A stretch of 64,000 nt of DNA from the IMG/VR virus record IMGVR_UViG_3300005399_000003; one strand, written 5' to 3'. Under the pieces are notes generated by a model that was given only the letters and a program-made list of their open reading frames with translations, was not told the DNA's origin and did no database searches. Every line of letters starts with the position of its first letter. Position 1 is the first letter of the stretch. Position numbers and translations under genes: made by a program. Shown piece after piece: positions 29,576 to 45,107 of the stretch. The DNA is from a virus. Lineage: Duplodnaviria; Heunggongvirae; Uroviricota; Caudoviricetes.

Positions 29576-29687
29576 ATAAGACGCCGATAAGTGGGCCTGC
29601 GCCTAACCAAACCACCAATCCCAGCCTTGCCACCGCCTGAACTATCCGCGCCACTTCCAAGCCATCGCCAGTCCATCTCGACCATGG

Positions 29688-29750
29688 CCCCACCATGGAC
29701 GTGCCATGGACGTGCCATGGCGTTGGCGTGTTGCCGTGACCATGGCGACA
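29688..29750 (+). promoter_or_regulatory. array of 5 CCATGG palindromes upstream of AGTCA-N4-TGACT element
   Basis: ACCATGGCC, ACCATGGAC, GCCATGGAC, GCCATGGCG and ACCATGGCG within about 65 bp. Confidence 0.5.
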
Positions 29751-30700: not shown

Positions 30701-30939
30701 CGAGAAAGGCGAGGGAAAGGCGGGGTTTGGGCCTAGATATAGCCATGGAGCTGCCATGGTAATAATCTTGCGCAGTTTTGGCTTGGAGCTTAATCTCACC
30801 CCGGAGGCGATTGATCTCGCCTTCAATGAAATCAAAGGGTTGCTAGGCGAAAGATTATTGCGCGTTGGCAGCTGTTTTGGGGTGATCTGCCGCTATTGAG
30901 GGGTGATAAGGGCTGTAGAGCAACAGAAAGGGATTACCC

Positions 30940-31654: not shown

Positions 31655-31795
31655 GTCTTCCATGGCACGGCCATGGCAAAGCTACCATGGCGTTTGCCTA
31701 AACGCGGCCATGGCAGGTCCATGGAGATCAGGCCATGGTCTTCTCCTAAACGCGGCCATGGCGGGTCCATGGCGTTTCGGCCATGGCGCCCCGGG
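31655..31795 (+). promoter_or_regulatory. array of 9 CCATGG palindromes incl. ~40-bp tandem repeat
   Basis: Nine G/TCCATGGC sites within about 135 bp. CTAAACGCGGCCATGGC(A/G)GGTCCATGG is duplicated. Confidence 0.55.
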
Positions 31796-37512: not shown

Positions 37513-38124
37513 TCAGGCGATGATATAGGGCCGCGTGATCCGCCGTTCGGGGAAGAGGGCGTTGTAGCGCATCACGAAGTTGGCGTAAGCGTAAGGGGGC
37601 AGCTGGGGGTTGATGATCACTTGGTCATCAGGGATGCACAGATGGGGCTCTGGCGGCGCGTAGTTCTCTTTGAGGTCGCGCACTTCGGTGTTGAGCATGA
37701 TGGCGTCGAGTTCTTTGATTTCGGCGCAATCCCACATGTCAGGGTCGATTTCGTGATCTTCAAAGATCATCCGGGTGACGTTGGTCTCATGCCCCTTGAT
37801 GGAGGGACACTTGCGTTTCAGGGGCGTGACAATCTCGCCGATCCAAGCTTCGCCTGCATCATGCAGTAGGGCTGCGCGGGCAAGGTCGATATTGCTACCC
37901 TCATGCAAATCCTCGGCCCAATACGACATGATGGTCGAATGCTGTGCGACGGAGTAATACCCGTTGGTATAGCCGTTAAAACGGCTCTGGTTCGCCAATG
38001 AGATGGCGACAGTTGACATGTCGATCATGTCTCGCTGAGGGTTTGTGAAGTCAATCTTGGCTCCACCCAGTGTCCAAAGTTCCGTGTCTTTGGTTTCCAT
38101 CATTGTCGTGACTGGCAATGTCAT
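37513..38124 (-). CDS. HD-domain 5'-deoxynucleotidase (YfbR-like)
   Basis: YSVAQHS, LLHDAGEAWIGEIVTP matches YfbR VSEHS, YHDASEVLTGDLPTP. Confidence 0.7.
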   Translation of the reverse strand: MTLPVTTMMETKDTELWTLGGAKIDFTNPQRDMIDMSTVAISLANQSRFNGYTNGYYSVAQHSTIMSYWAEDLHEGSNIDLARAALLHDAGEAWIGEIVTPLKRKCPSIKGHETNVTRMIFEDHEIDPDMWDCAEIKELDAIMLNTEVRDLKENYAPPEPHLCIPDDQVIINPQLPPYAYANFVMRYNALFPERRITRPYIIA

Positions 38125-38738
38125 GCTCCCGTTCTCAATCGCGTATCTCTAGCGCCGTTAATCCAATCTGTGAGGGGTGATTGAAGAATCGCTCTCCGAA
38201 GGCCTTCCAAAGAAGTCCCTGGATTATGAATGGTGAAGTCCACCAGGCTACGATCGTAGCTGTCGAACTCCCACTCACTAGCTTCCTTTAGCCCGCTCAA
38301 TACCTCTACGACGACACCACCAGCTCTTTTGTAAGCCGCGCCCTGCTGTCTTCGTACACTTCCAAAGCTGTAACCGTTGGGTGACTTATTGTCACCCCAA
38401 AACTGTCCCGAGGGTGTCACATTTTGTCGCAAGACGGAACGAATAGCGATTTCAGGAATTGCTTCATCCCCCAAAAGCGCTTCCACAAGATTGCCATATT
38501 CCCCAAGCAGCTGTCGAACTTGCCATTTCTTGCCGAAAACCGTGACGAAACGTAGCTTTCCTTCTTGAGAATATACGTCTTCAGGGGTCAGGCCCGCAAG
38601 GTCCATGACGTGACGCCGGATGATGTCGCCATCGTCCACTGGCTCGATTCCGAATAGTTCGGTAAGTAAGCGCTGAGTTGTTGTTTTCCCTGAGCCTGGA
38701 GCGCCGCAGAGTGCGATCAAAGTCGATGTTCTCGACAT
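38121..38738 (-). CDS. deoxynucleoside monophosphate kinase (T4 gp1-like P-loop kinase)
   Basis: GAPGSGKTT P-loop. KWQVRQLLGEYGNLVEALLGDEAIPEIAI parallels T4 gp1 QWSVRRLMQALGTDLIVNNFDRMYW. Confidence 0.55.
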   Translation of the reverse strand: MSRTSTLIALCGAPGSGKTTTQRLLTELFGIEPVDDGDIIRRHVMDLAGLTPEDVYSQEGKLRFVTVFGKKWQVRQLLGEYGNLVEALLGDEAIPEIAIRSVLRQNVTPSGQFWGDNKSPNGYSFGSVRRQQGAAYKRAGGVVVEVLSGLKEASEWEFDSYDRSLVDFTIHNPGTSLEGLRRAILQSPLTDWINGARDTRLRTGA

Positions 38739-38795
38739 GTTCTTTCCTTGGTTGGAATCAGTGTTAGCTGACTATAGCAGCAAGCCGCCGCGCTG

Positions 38796-40286
38796 TTAAG
38801 CGGCGAGCTTGAAGCCAAGACCAAGGGCGTCGAACTCCTGACCCTTCTTGAGGATGTTTTCAGCGAAGCCCGGGGTTGCCTCGACAATGGCCCTGCGAGC
38901 GCGGGCGTGCTTCTTGAGGTACTTGTTGCCGATGTCGCTGTAGTCCACGACGAAGCAGATGTTCGGAAGCCCACCTTTCTTTTCTCGCAGACCGCGCCCG
39001 ATGCGCTGGCGCAATGCGACCTCAGCTTTCCCGCCCCCGGCAAGAATCACCATCCCTACGGCCGGCACGTCCACACCCACATCGAGAATGGTCGAGCCGA
39101 TCAGCACTGCGGTCTCGCCAGACTTTAGGCGATTGAGGGCGCGCTGACGCTGGTCATTATCATGGGCGCCGTGAATGAACTCTGTGGCAAATCCTAATTT
39201 GCGGCAGTTGTCTCGTAGCGTAACTCCATGTGCCTTACGCTGCACCAAGATCATCACCGGCAGTCCGAGCTTTCGGGCGAACTCGACGCGAGACACAATA
39301 TCGGCATTGCGCATGTCGTTCTTCACCACACCGATGTCATACGCTTTCTGCCAGCTGTAGAACTGCTTGAGGTCTTTGGGCGGCGGGACATCGCGATACT
39401 GGAAGATCGGACGTGCAAGGATGTTGCGCTCGATCAGCATCTTCTCGGGGATGCTAATGCCGATCTGACCCGAGACACCCATGAGCCGCATATTGGCCTC
39501 TGCATCCGCGCGCATGAACGGGGTCGCGGTCAGGGCAAGCCTGTATCGCGCGTTCACCATCTCATTCATCACCTTGAAGTACGTCTCCGACCCCGCCTCA
39601 TGCGCCTCCTCAAGAATGCAAAACTCGAACATATGCAGCAGCTTGGTGGTGGCGCCCATGGTTTCGGGGTTCGACAGCCGCGCATCGAGGGTTTGGATCA
39701 TACCGACGTTCACCCCGCGGGTTGGACGCCATTCGCCGTCACCCATAACGCCCACCTTGAAGCCGGCTTGCTCAAAGCCGTCCTTCATCTGGTACATCAG
39801 CACCTGACGTGTCGTGATAAACAGGGTAGGGCGCATGATGCGTTTCACCGCGGTGCGTGCGATCATCGACTTGCCGCCACCGGTAGCGACCTGGGCGATC
39901 ATAGCGCCGTACTTCTCAAGCCTGCGTACCGTCTCGGGCTGATAGTCATACCGAGGGTCGATGTCGAAGGGGTTCACAGCCGCGTAAGCCTCATCCAGGG
40001 GCGGGCCTAACGGGGCGGGTAGGGGCTTTCTGCGTACCGTGACCTGATAACCCTCCTGACGCAGCTTATCGACCGCAGAGGCCAGAAAGCCCGCAGGGAA
40101 GATGCCTGTCGAAAACTCCAGAAAGCTTGTGCGCCCATCCCAGCCTTGGTTCTTACCCCGGCCTGTATGCTCGGCTCCGTCCACATAGTAGCTGAGCTGA
40201 TCCGAGACGATTAGCTTCGCCTCGATGTCGGCTTCCATCATGCGGGCCTTCACCGCATTCGCAACTATGAGAACATGCTCAGACAT
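38796..40286 (-). CDS. superfamily-2 DEAD/DEAH-box DNA helicase
   Basis: ATGGGKS (motif I), ILEEAHE (motif II), LTATP (motif III), QRIGRGLR (motif VI). Confidence 0.8.
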   Translation of the reverse strand: MSEHVLIVANAVKARMMEADIEAKLIVSDQLSYYVDGAEHTGRGKNQGWDGRTSFLEFSTGIFPAGFLASAVDKLRQEGYQVTVRRKPLPAPLGPPLDEAYAAVNPFDIDPRYDYQPETVRRLEKYGAMIAQVATGGGKSMIARTAVKRIMRPTLFITTRQVLMYQMKDGFEQAGFKVGVMGDGEWRPTRGVNVGMIQTLDARLSNPETMGATTKLLHMFEFCILEEAHEAGSETYFKVMNEMVNARYRLALTATPFMRADAEANMRLMGVSGQIGISIPEKMLIERNILARPIFQYRDVPPPKDLKQFYSWQKAYDIGVVKNDMRNADIVSRVEFARKLGLPVMILVQRKAHGVTLRDNCRKLGFATEFIHGAHDNDQRQRALNRLKSGETAVLIGSTILDVGVDVPAVGMVILAGGGKAEVALRQRIGRGLREKKGGLPNICFVVDYSDIGNKYLKKHARARRAIVEATPGFAENILKKGQEFDALGLGFKLAA

Positions 40287-40373: not shown

Positions 40374-41030
40374 ATGAACCTCATCCATACAGATCCCCGC
40401 ACATTAAGCCCAAATCCCTGGAACCCGAACCATGTCTCCCCGGAAGGTATGGAGCGTCTCACCGAAAGTCTTCGGCGCCACGGCTGGGTAAAGCCCGCGC
40501 TTGTGCGTGAGACAGACACGGGCCTTGAAATCCTCGGCGGTCAACATCGCATCGAAGCCTCGATCGTCCTGGGCAATGAGACAGTCCCGGTTCTCAATCT
40601 CGGTCGCTTGAGTGACGAGCGCGCCAAGGAGATCGGTCTGATCGACAACGCCCGTTACGGTAGCGATGACGCGGATGAACTGGCGGCCATCATCAAAGAC
40701 CTTGGCGGCAGCGAGATCATCTCGGAGTTTCTACCCTTCTCTGATGCCGAACTGGCCTCCCTCGCGACCGACATTGATGTGGATGACATCGACGACATGA
40801 TCGACGGCACCCACGACAGCACCGGTGAGCCGGAAGAGAAGCCCGAGCGGCCGCCCAAGACCCACACCATCATGCGCTTCAAGATCTCCATTCAAGACGA
40901 AGACCTGGTGCGGGAGCTGATCGAGGAGATCAAACGAGATCAGGAGTTCGTCGAGGAAGACGATCTCACCAATGCCGGGGATGCCCTGGTCTATCTTGCT
41001 CAACAAATGAAGGAAGCCGAACATGGCTAA
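40374..41030 (+). CDS. ParB/Srx-like nuclease-domain protein
   Basis: LEILGGQHR ParB N-domain motif and an acidic C-terminus. Confidence 0.7.
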   Translation: MNLIHTDPRTLSPNPWNPNHVSPEGMERLTESLRRHGWVKPALVRETDTGLEILGGQHRIEASIVLGNETVPVLNLGRLSDERAKEIGLIDNARYGSDDADELAAIIKDLGGSEIISEFLPFSDAELASLATDIDVDDIDDMIDGTHDSTGEPEEKPERPPKTHTIMRFKISIQDEDLVRELIEEIKRDQEFVEEDDLTNAGDALVYLAQQMKEAEHG

Positions 41031-41703
41031 AGAGATCGACATCAACGACCTCTCCATTGAGGCAGTCGACATCGACTACCCCAAACCAGCGGAGAACAAC
41101 AACAAGGTTCACACGCCCGCATCTGTCGCGCGTCAGGCTAAGTCCCTCGCGGCCCTCGGGCAGATCACCCCGATCATCCTGGCTGAAGACGGCGAGATCA
41201 TCGCCGGACACGGTCGGGTCATGGCTGCCAAAGAGCTTGGCTGGAAGAAGATCAAGGCCATCACGCTGCCTGTTGACGCCGAGACGGCGCGCAAGATGCG
41301 CATTGCTGACAACCTCGCATCGAACCAAAACTACGACATCGACGCACTGACCAACGAGCTGAAGGACTTGAACCTTCGCGACGAGCTGGAAAACTTCATC
41401 GGCGACGATCGGATGATCGACAATCTGGAAACCGCGCTCGACACGCTGGCGGAGATGGATCGCGACAGCTTCGTCAAAGACCTCGATGAAGCCGTGGATG
41501 TCTACGCCTCGGAATCCGACGGCTTGATGGATGAAATCGACCAGAAGGATGTGATGCTCAAGACTGTCTTTGAGTTCAATGGCCTCAAACCCAAGGAGGC
41601 GCGGCGGGTCAATCTGTTCATGGCGCTGATCAAGGGCAAGAGCGGCGCGGAGGCAAAAGAAGCCTTCCTTGAGCATGTGGAGAAGACCATTGCCGAAGGA
41701 TGA
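41023..41703 (+). CDS. ParB/Srx-like nuclease-domain protein (second copy)
   Basis: IIAGHGRVMAAKELGW motif. Confidence 0.7.
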   Translation: MAKEIDINDLSIEAVDIDYPKPAENNNKVHTPASVARQAKSLAALGQITPIILAEDGEIIAGHGRVMAAKELGWKKIKAITLPVDAETARKMRIADNLASNQNYDIDALTNELKDLNLRDELENFIGDDRMIDNLETALDTLAEMDRDSFVKDLDEAVDVYASESDGLMDEIDQKDVMLKTVFEFNGLKPKEARRVNLFMALIKGKSGAEAKEAFLEHVEKTIAEG

Positions 41704-42055
41704 GAATAGCAATGTTCGGCCGCTGTTTGCCGACATTCGCACGCCCGAAGAGCTTTCAAGCGCCGCTGAGCTTTACGAAGAGCGCTGCAAGTCCAGTTCG
41801 ATCCGCGACACGGTCGCTCAGTTTCAGAGCCAGATCGCAGAGGTCGGTGACGAAAACATCCATGGCGTGATCTGCATGGTCATCACCAAGGATCCGTCTC
41901 AGGGGACGTATTCTTTCACGCCATCATGCTACGAGACCGACATGGCCTATGCGATGACAGTCGCCACGCTCGCCATGCTGGAGCGCCTAATCCACGACGA
42001 AGCTGAGAACTTCCGCATCGAGGGTTTGGTCGAAGACTGCGAAGACGATCTCTGA
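41669..42055 (+). CDS. hypothetical protein
   Basis: ORF; start uncertain. Confidence 0.4.
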   Translation: MSMWRRPLPKDENSNVRPLFADIRTPEELSSAAELYEERCKSSSIRDTVAQFQSQIAEVGDENIHGVICMVITKDPSQGTYSFTPSCYETDMAYAMTVATLAMLERLIHDEAENFRIEGLVEDCEDDL

Positions 42056-42092
42056 CGAGAGACGCCCGAAGACCCTTCTTATGGAGGGCTTC

Positions 42093-42758
42093 ATGTCCAA
42101 CTCTACCCATCACGTCATCAACGTGAGCTTCCCCACACAGGTCAAAAAGACCGACCGCGTCATCGACGTGGCCGAAAGCTTCGGCATTGGTCTGGCTGAC
42201 GGGCAATTCACCATCTTCAAGGACTTCGAGGTCGATCTTGAGCAAGGCGCTCGGGTCTACATCACCGGTCAGTCTGGCGCCGGCAAGTCGATCCTGCTGC
42301 GCGAGCTTGAGCGTCAACTGAGCGAGGCGGGCAAAAGTGTCGCCAATATCGACAACGTGGAGCTCGATCCCGATCTGCCGCTGATCGACCAGCTCGGCAA
42401 ATCCACCAACGAAGCCACGCGGCTGCTAACCACCGCGGGGATCACGGATGCCTATCTCTTCGTGCGCAAGCCCGGTGAGCTTTCTGACGGTCAGCGATAC
42501 CGGGCTCGGCTGGCAAAGGTGCTTGAAGCCGATGCTGATGTTTGGGTCGCTGACGAGTTTGGCGCTGTTCTTGACCGTGTTGTCGCAAAAGCCGTGGCTT
42601 ACGGGATCGCTAAGAACGCGGTGCGTTTGGGTAAGACCCTGATCGTCGCGACCACACACCTCGATCTGAAAGAAGAGATCGGGCCGACGCTTTTCGTCAA
42701 CAAGCGCTACCACGACCGCATCGAGGTTGAGCAGAACGACGTGGAGCCGAGCGCATGA
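42093..42758 (+). CDS. soluble ABC-type ATPase
   Basis: GGAGGG RBS before ATG 42093. Walker A GQSGAGKS, signature LSDGQRYR, Walker B VWVADEFGAVLD, H-loop TTHLD. Confidence 0.7.
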   Translation: MSNSTHHVINVSFPTQVKKTDRVIDVAESFGIGLADGQFTIFKDFEVDLEQGARVYITGQSGAGKSILLRELERQLSEAGKSVANIDNVELDPDLPLIDQLGKSTNEATRLLTTAGITDAYLFVRKPGELSDGQRYRARLAKVLEADADVWVADEFGAVLDRVVAKAVAYGIAKNAVRLGKTLIVATTHLDLKEEIGPTLFVNKRYHDRIEVEQNDVEPSA

Positions 42759-42938
42759 TCCCGTCCATTTCGACGCTGCTGAACTTAGCGCTACCCCCTT
42801 ATGCCCATCACAAGCTTTGGCTTGCCCTAGATCGCGCTGTGAACGGGGCTGCAAGCGCTGTGAAGCGCCCTTGCAAGGGCACCCCCATGAACGCCCGAAA
42901 ACGCGCTCAGAAGCGCGCCCAGCAAGGGAGTGACAAGA

Positions 42939-43802
42939 ATGCCTGAAGACTTTGCCACCGAGATCGTCTGCGACCCGCAGGCCAAACCTGCATTCCCGCT
43001 GTTGTCGGAGATGTACGTCGAGCGCGGCACGCAGGAAGATTGGAACCTGCTGCACCATCTGCACTACAAGTCCGACCACAACCCTATCGGCGCGCGCTAC
43101 TATCGCCTTGTGTTGGACGGTGAGACAATCGGCGTCTGCGGGATCACCCAGCCCCGGCCCTTGGGCAAGGAGCGTCATCAGATTTGGAAGAAGCTCACGC
43201 CGGGGAATGACACCAAGGCCTCGAACCGCTTTCGGTACAAGTGGGTCAACAAGAACATCGTGGTGATCGGCCGCATTGTGCTGGACACGATGTACCGCGG
43301 CGTGGGCGCCTCGTATCGCTTTCAGAACATTGTTGCCCGCAAGTCTGGCATGCCGATTGTCGAGATCATGTCCTCGATGTCGAAGTACAATCCCTTCGCG
43401 CAGAAGGCGGGGTTTGAGTTCGTGCGCCCCATGCGGTCGAACAAGTTCGATGTCGGCATGAAGTTCTTCCGGGCCAACTTCGATGCGCACCCCGCCGATC
43501 TCGATGGACTGCTCAAAGAGATCGACGCAATGCCTGAGGCCGCCCGGGGCTTGATGGTCGATCGTATCAAGACGTTCTACTACCGCCACTCCGCCAACGA
43601 GAAGACGGGTGACGCCCGCGACATCGGGCAGGAGCGGGTGCGTAACATGAGCACGAGCCTTGTCTTGCGTCAGTTGCAGCAGCTGGTGCTCTCAACGCCG
43701 CTTTACGGGGTCTACATGAACCCGGACTTCGGGCGCGATCTTCCCGATCAAATCCCACTCACCGCTTTTGATGCTCAACCGACGACGGAGCCGCTGAAAT
43801 GA
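42939..43802 (+). CDS. GNAT-like acetyltransferase-fold protein with C-terminal extension
   Basis: AAGGGAG RBS. GRIVLDTMYRGVGASYRF is motif-A-like. Confidence 0.45.
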   Translation: MPEDFATEIVCDPQAKPAFPLLSEMYVERGTQEDWNLLHHLHYKSDHNPIGARYYRLVLDGETIGVCGITQPRPLGKERHQIWKKLTPGNDTKASNRFRYKWVNKNIVVIGRIVLDTMYRGVGASYRFQNIVARKSGMPIVEIMSSMSKYNPFAQKAGFEFVRPMRSNKFDVGMKFFRANFDAHPADLDGLLKEIDAMPEAARGLMVDRIKTFYYRHSANEKTGDARDIGQERVRNMSTSLVLRQLQQLVLSTPLYGVYMNPDFGRDLPDQIPLTAFDAQPTTEPLK

Positions 43803-44119
43803 TGACCTATGAGAAAGACCCATATCGTCTGACCAAGAAGCAGATGCATGTGCTTTCTGTAATCGCCCGAGGCGGGGATGATGGTGACTTCCTCGACCTC
43901 GATCAGCTCTTGGAGAAGATCAACTATGAGACGACCAAAGCCTCGATGCACTTCACGCTCCGAGGCCTGCTGCGTCGGGGTATGATCGAGAAGAAGGGCC
44001 AGGAGCTGCGCCGAGGGCGTCAGCGCTTGGTGTTGGCCCCGACAGTGAAAGGGCAGGGCATGGTGCGCACCGACAGCTCCGGTGGCGGGGTTGTGATGGA
44101 GGGATTCGACGAGGTCTAG
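43799..44119 (+). CDS. winged-helix DNA-binding protein
   Basis: LTKKQMHVLSVIARGG...MHFTLRGLLRRGMIEK has an ArsR/MarR-like wHTH pattern. Confidence 0.45.
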   Translation: MMTYEKDPYRLTKKQMHVLSVIARGGDDGDFLDLDQLLEKINYETTKASMHFTLRGLLRRGMIEKKGQELRRGRQRLVLAPTVKGQGMVRTDSSGGGVVMEGFDEV

Positions 44120-44490
44120 GCCCGAGGATGCCTGTCAACCGAAAAGCGAAGGACAGGGGTGCGACATATTGTCACCACATCGCTAAGAATCATTCCCCCT
44201 GTCCCTCTACTCGCTTCACTCGTAGAGTGTACTAGTAAGTAAATATAAGTCAATTAGTATTTAGCGGATGTGGTGACACTATGTCGCACCCAAAGGACTT
44301 GACATAAAATCAGCCACTTAGGCGATTCTGGCTCCTCGGGAAGATAAGTAAGCGCTGACTTGTATGTTATCGCCTAATCGCTTATACTTAGGACACCACC
44401 CGGTATCCGGTTTTCCCTGTTCACGGTCCTCGGGTGTCTCTCGTCAGGCCCGCTCTTTCGGGAGCGGGCCACCCTAATTCAGCAGGAACC
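44120..44490. promoter_or_regulatory. AT-rich non-coding region with 24-bp inverted repeats; candidate pac/cos or late-control region
   Basis: GGTGCGACATATTGTCACCACATC at 44156 pairs with GATGTGGTGACACTATGTCGCACC at 44267. Further inverted repeats and a GGCCCGCTC-TTTCGG-GAGCGGGCC hairpin at 44446-44472. Confidence 0.5.
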
Positions 44491-44492
44491 TC

Positions 44493-45107
44493 ATGGCAGG
44501 CGAGAAATCTGAACCCCACCATCGGAAGATGACGCCCTTGGATTACGCCAAGGCGCGGCGCTTGTATGAAATGGGCACGGCGACCCTCGCGGAGCTTGCC
44601 GAGCAGTTCGGGGTTCACCCCTCGTCGCTGCACGAACGCTTCAAGCGCGACGGTGTGGTCAAGGGCTCTCGGGTGTCCGAGGCGCTTGAGAAGATGGACG
44701 AGGTCATCGCCAACGACGCTGAACAGCTGATGAAGCGCGTCACGGACACCAAAGAACAACACTACCGCTACGCCGAGGCGCTCTCGAAGATGACCATGCA
44801 GGCCATTATTGACACGCGCCAGAAGGGCAAACCCATCGCCGCCGCGGATGGTGATCTCGCTGCGCTCAACAAGGCCGCCAAGACGCTCGAAGTGCTGCGC
44901 AAGGAGCGCTACAAGCTTTTGGGCCTCGATGACGATGGCGGCGATCCCAACGAGAATGAAGAAATCCTGATCTCCGAAATGACGGATGAGCAGATCGACG
45001 AACTGCGCCAAGCCGCCAACCCGAATGTCGATAACTCCGAGGGCATCGAGACCCTCTTGGAGGACATCGACATCGTTGATGAGGGGCTGGAGGGCCTTGA
45101 GCAGTGA
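44493..45107 (+). CDS. terminase small subunit (putative)
   Basis: HTH LAELAEQFGVHPSSLHERFKR, immediately upstream of TerL. Confidence 0.55.
   Translation: MAGEKSEPHHRKMTPLDYAKARRLYEMGTATLAELAEQFGVHPSSLHERFKRDGVVKGSRVSEALEKMDEVIANDAEQLMKRVTDTKEQHYRYAEALSKMTMQAIIDTRQKGKPIAAADGDLAALNKAAKTLEVLRKERYKLLGLDDDGGDPNENEEILISEMTDEQIDELRQAANPNVDNSEGIETLLEDIDIVDEGLEGLEQ

Follow-up and report, generated by a model that had tools for sequence, protein, structure and literature searches.

A widespread phage gene module encoding ParB-like, ABC ATPase and GNAT-fold proteins that probably modifies viral DNA or DNA-bound proteins ahead of packaging

Upstream of its packaging genes the analysed 64,000-nucleotide stretch of tailed-virus DNA (hereafter the window) carries a set of co-directional genes which represents a widespread phage module and probably serves to modify viral DNA, or proteins bound to viral DNA, ahead of packaging. 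More specifically, we tentatively favour an ATP- and acyl-CoA-dependent modifier of these substrates that would act in the lytic cycle and be coupled to packaging. The observations behind this reading are the folds and motifs of the encoded proteins, the occurrence of ABC-GNAT and ParB-ABC-GNAT fusions, the tight linkage to the TerS and TerL genes and the silence of the orthologous genes in a lysogen.

Gene content of the module

The open reading frames of the module are all located on the plus strand:

40374..41030 (+): ParB1, 218 aa; ParB/Srx N-terminal domain in residues 1-110 (GGQHR and DNxR motifs), acidic linker, C-terminal strand-helix-helix unit
41023..41703 (+): ParB2, 226 aa; paralogous ParB/Srx N-terminal domain (AGHGR motif) in the three-part layout of ParB1; Pfam ParB_N 8.5e-6, phrog_930 4e-37
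41669/41675..42055 (+): X, acidic, 126 aa from the start at 41675; variable cargo slot outside the conserved core
42081/42093..42758 (+): soluble ABC ATPase, 221 aa; N-terminal half of a split COG2401-type protein; ABC_tran 4.7e-13, phrog_293 4e-43
42755..42946 (+): possible basic ORF of 63 aa (uncertain) in the ABC-GNAT gap, with an ATGA overlap with the ABC stop codon
42930/42939..43802 (+): GNAT-fold protein, 287 aa (290 aa from the earlier start), pI 9.2, with a helical C-terminal extension; the matching C-terminal half of COG2401
43799..44119 (+): putative winged-helix protein, small and basic, 106 aa; phrog_900 2e-20, MarR_2 E=0.011
44120..44492 (no strand): non-coding gap before TerS, GC 0.51 against a window mean of 0.57, with a 25-nt inverted repeat
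44493..45107 (+): TerS-like HTH protein, 204 aa; phrog_867 6e-39; annotated as small terminase in the phage-plasmid Cyrano
45104..46384 (+): terminase large subunit (TerL), the conserved genomic partner of the module; Terminase_6N 2e-8, Terminase_6C, phrog_2 7e-51

Matches to five PHROG families (the three listed for module proteins as well as phrog_723 at 1e-51 and phrog_886 at 7e-106) indicate that the ORFs are real genes rather than chance frames. The gene order is that given in the initial annotation, ParB-ParB-X-ABC ATPase-GNAT-wHTH upstream of the packaging genes. The two ParB genes overlap by 8 nt, the ATG of the ABC ATPase at 42093 is preceded by GGAGGG, and that of the GNAT-fold protein at 42939 lies 8 nt past AAGGGAG. 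At its 3' end the GNAT gene overlaps the small putative DNA-binding gene downstream, which is conserved with the module (found in 66 related loci) and whose earlier assignment as a winged-helix protein stays putative in view of the weak MarR_2 match.

The 63-aa ORF has a weak syntenic tblastn match (E=0.002) in the closest relative, L003, which is also the only relative with a detectable homologue of X. Pfam, NCBIfam and PADLOC gave at most weak matches to the GNAT-fold protein, X and the winged-helix protein; X was without a match to any family in these or in PHROGs. In relatives, variable cargo genes are inserted inside the module, occupying up to 2.8 kb between the ABC and GNAT genes.

ParB1 and ParB2 belong, as first proposed, to the ParB/Srx N-terminal domain superfamily (PF02195), based on an Srx-like alpha/beta fold and the GxxR nucleotide-pocket motif. 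Neither a HTH nor a ParB C-terminal dimerisation domain was found in them by Pfam or in the AF2 model, and no ParA is encoded among the ORFs neighbouring the module. They thereby differ from the chromosomal and plasmid ParB proteins that form CTP-dependent clamps (Spo0J, KorB, PadC), whose motif GERRxRA is replaced by GGQHR or AGHGR; relative to the clamp motifs GERRxRA and ENLQR the sequences here read GGQHR and DNARY. Phage ParB-methyltransferase fusions (phrog_498; for instance the “DNA modification methylase” of Streptococcus phage Javan28) share the N-domain subtype (phrog_498 1e-20 to 1e-22; tblastn) and account for many of the phage relatives of the ParB2 N-domain. These fusions occupy the position of the module just upstream of terminase genes; their catalytic partner, however, is a SAM methyltransferase, whereas the module combines an ABC ATPase with a GNAT-fold protein and usually encodes ParB as a separate protein.

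The ATPase is a member of the ABC family (PF00005) with an ABC_tran match above the cut-off and the full motif set GQSGAGKS, LSDGQ, VWVADE, LD and ATTH, conserved to at least 90% among 68 orthologues. It has the canonical ABC fold and is thus not a ParA, and no hydrophobic or transmembrane segment was detected in any module protein (maximal 19-residue hydropathy at most 1.2), so that its earlier description as a soluble and complete ABC ATPase holds. Among solved structures in the PDB its best sequence matches are the ABC-F proteins ExpZ/VmlR and EttA; the nucleotide-binding domain of MalK is matched as well. The domain resembles those of transporters and ABC-F proteins, not the DNA-binding ABC clades, and it has no obvious DNA-binding insert.

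The alpha/beta fold of the GNAT superfamily was recovered for the 287-aa protein, and the acyl-CoA pyrophosphate loop R/Q-x-x-G-x-G/A reads RGVGAS in the window, with R123 and G126 invariant, and RGIGLG in fused relatives. Outside the loop numerous polar residues are invariant (H45, Y46, K47, E145, S148, S151, N154), which suggests an active site. The fold assignment of the initial annotation was therefore kept, and the C-terminal extension shortened from the proposed 140 aa to about 120 aa (residues ~170-290). Pfam GNAT models weakly match relatives and do not match the window protein; a profile search of solved structures returned GNAT matches at E~1 only, and a structure search of BFVD only low-TM GNAT and Mom matches.

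Split and fused forms of COG2401

The ABC ATPase and the GNAT-fold protein together constitute a split version of COG2401, a family named “ABC-type ATPase fused to predicted acetyltransferase”. Both halves are homologous to this family, since searches with the GNAT profile retrieve fused proteins at 1e-25 or better and the window ABC protein matches them by phmmer at 1e-35 to 1e-61. The orthologue of the 290-aa form was labelled COG2401/MK0520 by the annotators at JGI and of Cyrano. The view that the ATPase-GNAT pairing has no obvious named counterpart was hence mistaken. The known family carries both domains in one chain, whereas the window encodes them as separate genes (42093-42758 and 42939-43802) next to two ParB proteins and a winged-helix protein.

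In all 79 related loci with enough upstream sequence the ABC and GNAT genes co-occur, and 65 of 133 distant representatives unite both in one chain; the concern that their homologues might never co-occur can be dismissed. Five fused proteins carry an additional N-terminal ParB_N domain (custom HMM E 1e-13 to 1e-5; Pfam 2.9e-5) and two a family-B DNA polymerase (PolB; 3.8e-29 and 6.9e-17). Further additions are a TFIIB-like tail (n=1) and an N-terminal P-loop with a PD-(D/E)xK nuclease-like region recognised by eye (n=3). The fusion partners are all DNA-handling domains; no fusion to a protein-targeting domain was seen. One fused homologue is located in a replication module instead of a packaging module.

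Relatives of the GNAT gene were found in 411 IMG/VR contigs and the fused form in at least 558. About 930 PLSDB plasmids, mostly from Klebsiella, Escherichia, Acinetobacter, Enterobacter, Yersinia and Salmonella, match a 6-kb query of module and terminase, and among the matches listed the match spans from the ABC gene into TerL. A scan of genome contigs was informative for the first ~17 loci, beyond which generic ABC ATPases were retrieved. Halovirus HHTV-2 gene 22, which adjoins a ParB, was tested as a GNAT relative and is not one. The gene set is thus not peculiar to one phage; both bacterial and archaeal viruses carry it, and tractable hosts are available in E. coli, Salmonella, Pseudomonas syringae and Rhizobium.

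The module is hidden in public annotation, where the GNAT-fold protein is called “ABC transporter ATP-binding subunit” and one ParB “DNA methyltransferase”. We found no functional study of COG2401/MK0520 or of the ParB-ABC-GNAT module in the literature, including that on SSU5 and archaeal viruses.

Linkage to the terminase genes

The order of the module with TerS, TerL and portal does not vary among the 80 related viral contigs that were examined. The diverged fused-gene lineage is represented by 80 diverse viral contigs; in 54 of them the fused gene directly follows TerL in the same orientation, at a median distance of 1 nt, and the fused proteins have a median pairwise identity of 56%. As these contigs belong to one viral lineage, the neighbourhood was inherited and does not represent 54 independent events. 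Both terminase proteins of that lineage are homologous to those of the window, and the N-terminal HTH of the window TerS has a homologue in the protein encoded ahead of TerL there (hhalign 93%). Archaeal proviruses and Planctomycetota prophages likewise have TerL alongside or in the vicinity. Only one of the 80 fused-lineage loci encodes a ParB, which indicates that DNA targeting by ParB is not universal.

The link between module and terminase consists in synteny only. Mapping to a known terminase accessory family would have spoken against a novel module and was not observed: in searches of Pfam, PHROGs and NCBIfam none of the five module proteins showed homology to TerS or to accessory proteins of the HNH or gpFI type.

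The gap ahead of TerS contains an inverted repeat of 25 nt (44157-44181 / 44267-44291, 96% complementary), and nearly all relatives have a gap of 80-600 nt at this place with a GC content below the locus mean. It may serve as a late promoter, as a pac site or for protein loading; promoter and terminator scans gave results at chance level.

Proposed function and alternative explanations

Within the reading we favour, the module would act on a viral DNA substrate between replication and packaging, in the lytic cycle, and the ABC ATPase and the GNAT-fold protein would be two halves of one machine. Binding of ATP should bring the ABC dimer into its closed state and place the GNAT domain in position, and this domain would transfer an acyl group from acyl-CoA. 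ParB1 and ParB2, each with its own small C-terminal unit, may serve as DNA-handling adaptors like the ParB domains of the methyltransferase fusions, their Srx-fold domains putatively binding a nucleotide triphosphate. The likeliest target would be the phage DNA itself, with base acylation being protective in the next host, followed by a protein bound to phage DNA or to the terminase complex.

A narrower version, which we regard as possible though doubtful, is a new DNA-modification system. Once viral DNA has been replicated, an ATP-dependent GNAT, in some lineages directed by ParB, would acylate its bases shortly ahead of packaging or while packaging proceeds, yielding for example N4-acyl-cytosine or N6-acyl-adenine. 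Tailed viruses of both bacterial and archaeal hosts would share such a system, the SSU5-type phage-plasmids of Enterobacterales among them.

TmcA/NAT10 and Elp3, which couple a GNAT to an ATPase or other cofactor domain, and Mom of phage Mu modify nucleic-acid bases. By analogy the module may resemble TmcA/NAT10, an ATPase-coupled GNAT forming N4-acetylcytidine in RNA; the latter, however, employs a RecD-like helicase and a tRNA-binding domain, whereas the module has an ABC domain and no tRNA-binding domain. To Mom, a DNA adenine modifier of the GNAT fold, the module protein is no more similar than to generic GNATs. We know of no modified base in any phage of this group.

Both the modification and the packaging-accessory readings raised in the initial annotation gain support from the association with ParB, PolB and TerL. 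A protein acetyltransferase serving packaging, in which the ABC-GNAT pair acetylates terminase, portal, capsid or DNA-coating nucleoid proteins, and thereby licenses or clears the substrate for the motor, seems unlikely, albeit worth keeping in mind, since GNATs that acetylate proteins do not normally need an ATPase, since the PolB and ParB fusions indicate DNA and not virion protein, and since protein-targeting domains are missing among the fusion partners. We consider it improbable that the module has no connection with packaging and works against host defence or in host takeover, by acylating an immune signal of the host, a defence protein or the machinery of translation; its ABC protein might then dock on ribosomes or tRNA like ABC-F proteins. 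The ABC-F structure matches, weak PADLOC matches of the ABC protein to mad3 and mad8 and the cargo genes inside the module are in line with such a role. However, the protein has a single nucleotide-binding domain and lacks the ABC-F linker or arm, PADLOC found no effector match beyond generic ABC similarity, the module is strictly conserved unlike accessory genes of fast turnover, and its associations with TerL, ParB and PolB would be hard to account for. An even smaller likelihood is assigned to a non-catalytic GNAT that senses acyl-CoA and, together with the ATPase, tunes terminase activity to the metabolic state of the host; GNAT-fold proteins such as PanZ are CoA-dependent regulators and the coupling to TerL is tight, but the invariant polar residues named above suggest an active site.

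Plasmid partition or silencing, with the ParB proteins binding the phased CCATGG arrays at 29.7-31.8 kb as a centromere, was proposed at first and is now very unlikely. Apart from these arrays, the ParB_N domains and the about 930 phage-plasmids among the relatives would fit it. CCATGG, however, is not enriched over the whole window (28 sites against 21 expected), the module also occurs in nickie, deposited as a linear phage genome, and in archaeal proviruses, and the ATPase is not of the ParA type. According to published RNA data of a lysogen of Cyrano, an E. coli phage-plasmid, the five module orthologues do not rise above background when it is maintained as a plasmid (5-9.5, compared with a median of 9.8) while the ParA/MinD-like CYRAN_99 is expressed (91.7), which argues against partition. 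A type I partition ParB (ParABS) was ruled out on this silence together with the missing HTH, ParB_C and nearby ParA. Hardly credible, finally, are a transporter or an auxiliary metabolic function, which the name “ABC transporter” in GenBank and PHROGs would imply, and a GNAT toxin with the winged-helix protein as antitoxin, despite the overlap of their genes. The locus encodes no permease or other membrane partner, phrog_886 is a GNAT fold and not an ABC protein, and the module is conserved beside the terminase. Toxins of the TacT or KacT type were rejected based on the length of the protein with its extension, the ABC fusion in relatives and the strict terminase synteny; Cyrano moreover has a separate KacT toxin-antitoxin pair elsewhere.

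To our knowledge, DNA packaging is not known to involve any enzyme that uses acyl-CoA, and among GNAT-fold enzymes Mom alone is known to modify DNA. Identifying the substrate of the module would thus reveal either a novel DNA modification or a novel step of terminase control.

The conserved ATP-binding motifs, the acyl-CoA loop and the basic GNAT-fold protein were counted in favour of the reading we prefer. Counted against it were the closeness of the ABC domain to transporters and ABC-F proteins, the fold match to Mom, which is no better than that to protein N-acetyltransferases, the rarity of ParB in the fused lineage, the shared ancestry of the TerL adjacency there and the fused homologue located in a replication module.

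Gene content and domain assignment

All six ORFs listed by the initial annotation were found by ORF calling in the window, closely spaced on the + strand at 40374-44119, with overlaps of 8 nt between the ParB1 and ParB2 genes and of 4 nt between the GNAT and wHTH genes:

40374-41030, +, ParB1
41023-41703, +, ParB2
41675-42055, +, small protein X
42093-42758, +, ABC ATPase
42755-42946, +, possible 63-aa basic ORF, overlapping both the stop codon of the ABC gene (ATGA) and the start of the GNAT gene
42939-43802, +, GNAT-fold protein
43799-44119, +, wHTH protein
37513-40286, -, UvsW-like helicase, dNMP kinase (phrog_139) and HD-type dNMP phosphatase (phrog_318), directly upstream of and divergent from the module
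44120-44492, non-coding gap before TerS, 373 nt, GC 0.51 versus 0.57 for the window

The UvsW-like helicase gene starts 87 nt from the module, while a TerS-like gene follows 373 nt past its end, succeeded by the TerL and portal genes. The start codons given in that annotation agree with the likely starts, GGAGGG preceding ATG 42093 and AAGGGAG lying 8 nt before ATG 42939. Since the five proteins other than X have strong PHROG matches (1e-51, 4e-37, 4e-43, 7e-106 and 2e-20), these ORFs represent genes and not chance ORFs. X has no family matches, and a homologue was found only in the nearest relative.

ParB1 and ParB2 both match Pfam ParB_N, and ParB1 aligns with the Spo0J N-domain (1.9e-10). 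GGxHR and DNxR are invariant across the family, in which neither an HTH nor a ParB C-terminal domain is present. The ATPase is a complete ABC nucleotide-binding domain (ABC_tran 4.7e-13) lacking any hydrophobic segment; its Walker A, LSDGQ signature, Walker B, D-loop and H-loop are at least 90% conserved among 68 orthologues, and the nearest sequences are ABC-F and MalK-type domains. The GNAT-fold (290-aa) protein has no Pfam match; its GNAT domain carries a C-terminal helical extension of ~120 aa, and the acyl-CoA loop reads RGVGAS in the window protein and RGIGLG in distant relatives. The wHTH assignment is based on MarR_2 (E=0.011) only.

Split and fused forms of the ABC-GNAT pair

A relative of the GNAT protein is encoded in 411 IMG/VR contigs, of which the best 80 loci were compared in gene order together with phages Cyrano and RHph_X66. 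Wherever the contig extends, the order is constant: UvsW on the opposite strand, ParB1, ParB2, ABC, GNAT, usually wHTH, a non-coding gap, TerS, TerL and portal. Co-occurrence of the ATPase and GNAT genes, proposed earlier as a check, was confirmed, the ABC gene lying upstream of GNAT in 79/79 loci with enough sequence. ParB2 and ABC, and likewise ABC and GNAT, can be separated by additional cargo genes that take up as much as 2.8 kb; in the window these slots are occupied by X and the 63-aa ORF. The latter has a weak syntenic match in the closest relative (E=0.002) and may be a small cargo gene. Furthermore, ~930 PLSDB plasmids of 105-120 kb, most of them from Klebsiella, Escherichia, Acinetobacter, Enterobacter, Yersinia and Salmonella, match the module-plus-terminase region.

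The initial annotation saw no obvious named counterpart of the ATPase-GNAT pairing. However, an orthologue of the 290-aa protein has been labelled COG2401, an ABC-type ATPase fused to a predicted acetyltransferase, by GenBank and JGI annotators. Searching a library of 1.84 billion proteins with a GNAT-family profile yielded 1044 representatives (E≤1e-3), and 65 of the 133 distant representatives examined combine ABC and GNAT in a single chain. N-terminal additions occur in 13 of these 65. Five carry ParB_N with a zinc ribbon (custom HMM 1e-13 to 1e-5; Pfam 2.9e-5 and 1.7e-3) and two a family-B DNA polymerase. Three others (P0177, P0178, P0225) begin with ~400 aa containing a P-loop NTPase with a weak match to the Pox_A32 packaging ATPase (E=0.016), followed, before ABC and GNAT, by a PD-(D/E)xK nuclease-like segment judged by eye and lacking profile confirmation. 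One protein has a TFIIB-like tail. Based on these fusions, the window holds a split ParB, ABC and GNAT machine whose parts are joined in one chain in other proteins. In one distant fused homologue (P0191) the ABC domain is interrupted just behind Walker B (ILDEFC|F...) by a LAGLIDADG intein, a type of element usually found in core replication or packaging genes.

The component families are already catalogued (COG2401; phrog_723, 930, 293, 886 and 900). We found no functional study of them in the accessible literature and no earlier description of the TerL link or the ParB-ABC-GNAT fusions. Public annotation gives the GNAT-fold protein (phrog_886) the name "ABC transporter ATP-binding subunit" and the ParB2 orthologue in the RefSeq record of phage nickie the name "DNA methyltransferase"; both names (NC_042091.1, RHph_X66, PHROGs) are carried-over errors.

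Association with terminase and presumed function

The fused form is encoded in at least 558 further viral contigs, and the following counts refer to the best 80 of them, whose fused proteins are diverse and share a median pairwise identity of 56% with <1% of pairs exceeding 90%. TerL lies directly upstream and co-directional in 54/80 contigs (median gap 1 nt, many 4-nt overlaps), an adjacency inherited within one lineage, so that these 54 contigs do not count as independent cases. In 61/80 contigs TerL is no more than three genes away. An HTH is common to the gene preceding TerL in this lineage and the window TerS family (hhalign 93%), and the window TerL detects the fused-lineage TerLs (best 1e-13). 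Independent support is provided by several distinct arrangements in each of which the module sits next to the terminase. In one prophage TerL overlaps the fused gene, Bathyarchaeia and Nitrososphaeria proviruses have TerL, portal and capsid genes nearby, and Planctomycetota prophages encode split ABC, GNAT and then ParB, with TerL <2 kb away in one. One fused homologue, however, is located in an SPbeta-like replication module. In 27/80 contigs the fused gene is the last one, right after TerL and <400 nt from the contig end, a position that could mark either the real end of the genome or the boundary of a provirus.

After the ParB PHROGs, ParB1 and ParB2 each gave their best matches in PHROGs and PADLOC to ParB-fused DNA methyltransferases (phrog_498, MTase_II). 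A tblastn search detected relatives of the ParB2 N-domain in 315 phage records, many named DNA modification methylases and others named "ParB-like nuclease" and positioned at the left end of the genome. In Streptococcus phage Javan28 a ParB-methylase lies two genes ahead of TerL, and RcKvothe has its ParB as gene 1 and TerS and TerL as genes 5 and 6. These annotations and positions indicate that the ParB2 subtype commonly accompanies DNA-modifying enzymes just ahead of the terminase, and we rate the module as a variant of this known kind of ParB-associated modification module.

Most likely, ATP would close the ABC dimer and thereby position the GNAT domain, which would pass on an acyl group from acyl-CoA, while ParB1 and ParB2 would tie the enzyme to the phage DNA. 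As for the substrate, we tentatively favour DNA, by base acylation, an assignment that taken by itself is still rather unlikely. It is preferred because all fusion partners handle DNA, because the ParB subtype is that used by DNA methylases and because GNATs needing an ATPase or second cofactor domain, such as TmcA/NAT10 and Elp3, are modifiers of nucleic-acid bases, while ATP is not required for protein acetylation. It is nearly as likely that the target is a protein at the packaging complex. What the data show are the folds, motifs, fusions, synteny and silence in the lysogen, whereas chemistry and substrate are inferred. DNA acylation, if confirmed, would be categorically new. Should the phage DNA carry a modification, the nucleotide-pool genes at 37513-40286 (-) might be relevant.

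CCATGG arrays and the gap before TerS

The initial annotation had also considered a partition or silencing system with CCATGG arrays as its centromere:

29693-29720, within 29682-29745, CCATGG array with 11-nt period, CCATGGACGTG
30743-30759, CCATGG array
31660-31773, within 31660-31786, CCATGG array, 2.4 copies of a 48-nt unit holding three CCATGG sites each

The arrays are real and phased, and they look like iterons or operators. However, they lie 9-11 kb from the module among ORFs without PHROG matches, the CCATGG total in the window is not above chance (28 versus 21±4), and no tie to the module was found. Further arguments against partition are the lack of a nearby ParA and of an HTH in the ParBs, and the presence of the module in archaeal proviruses and in nickie, which is recorded as a linear genome. 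Moreover, the orthologous module is silent in the E. coli LF82 lysogen of Cyrano: RNA values of CYRAN_119-123 (ParB, ParB, ABC, GNAT, wHTH) were 5.0, 9.5, 9.2, 8.0 and 7.8 at a prophage median of 9.8 and an expressed-gene cut-off of 49, compared with 91.7 for the ParA/MinD-like CYRAN_99 (PMC9928086, supplementary file 2).

The gap at 44120-44492 contains two inverted repeats, one of 25 nt (44157-44181 / 44267-44291, 96% complementary, with arms separated by 85 nt) and one of 12 nt. In nearly all of the 80 related contigs TerS likewise follows a gap, 80-600 nt long and lower in GC than the locus mean; the one in the window is a candidate for a pac site, a late promoter or a protein-loading site.
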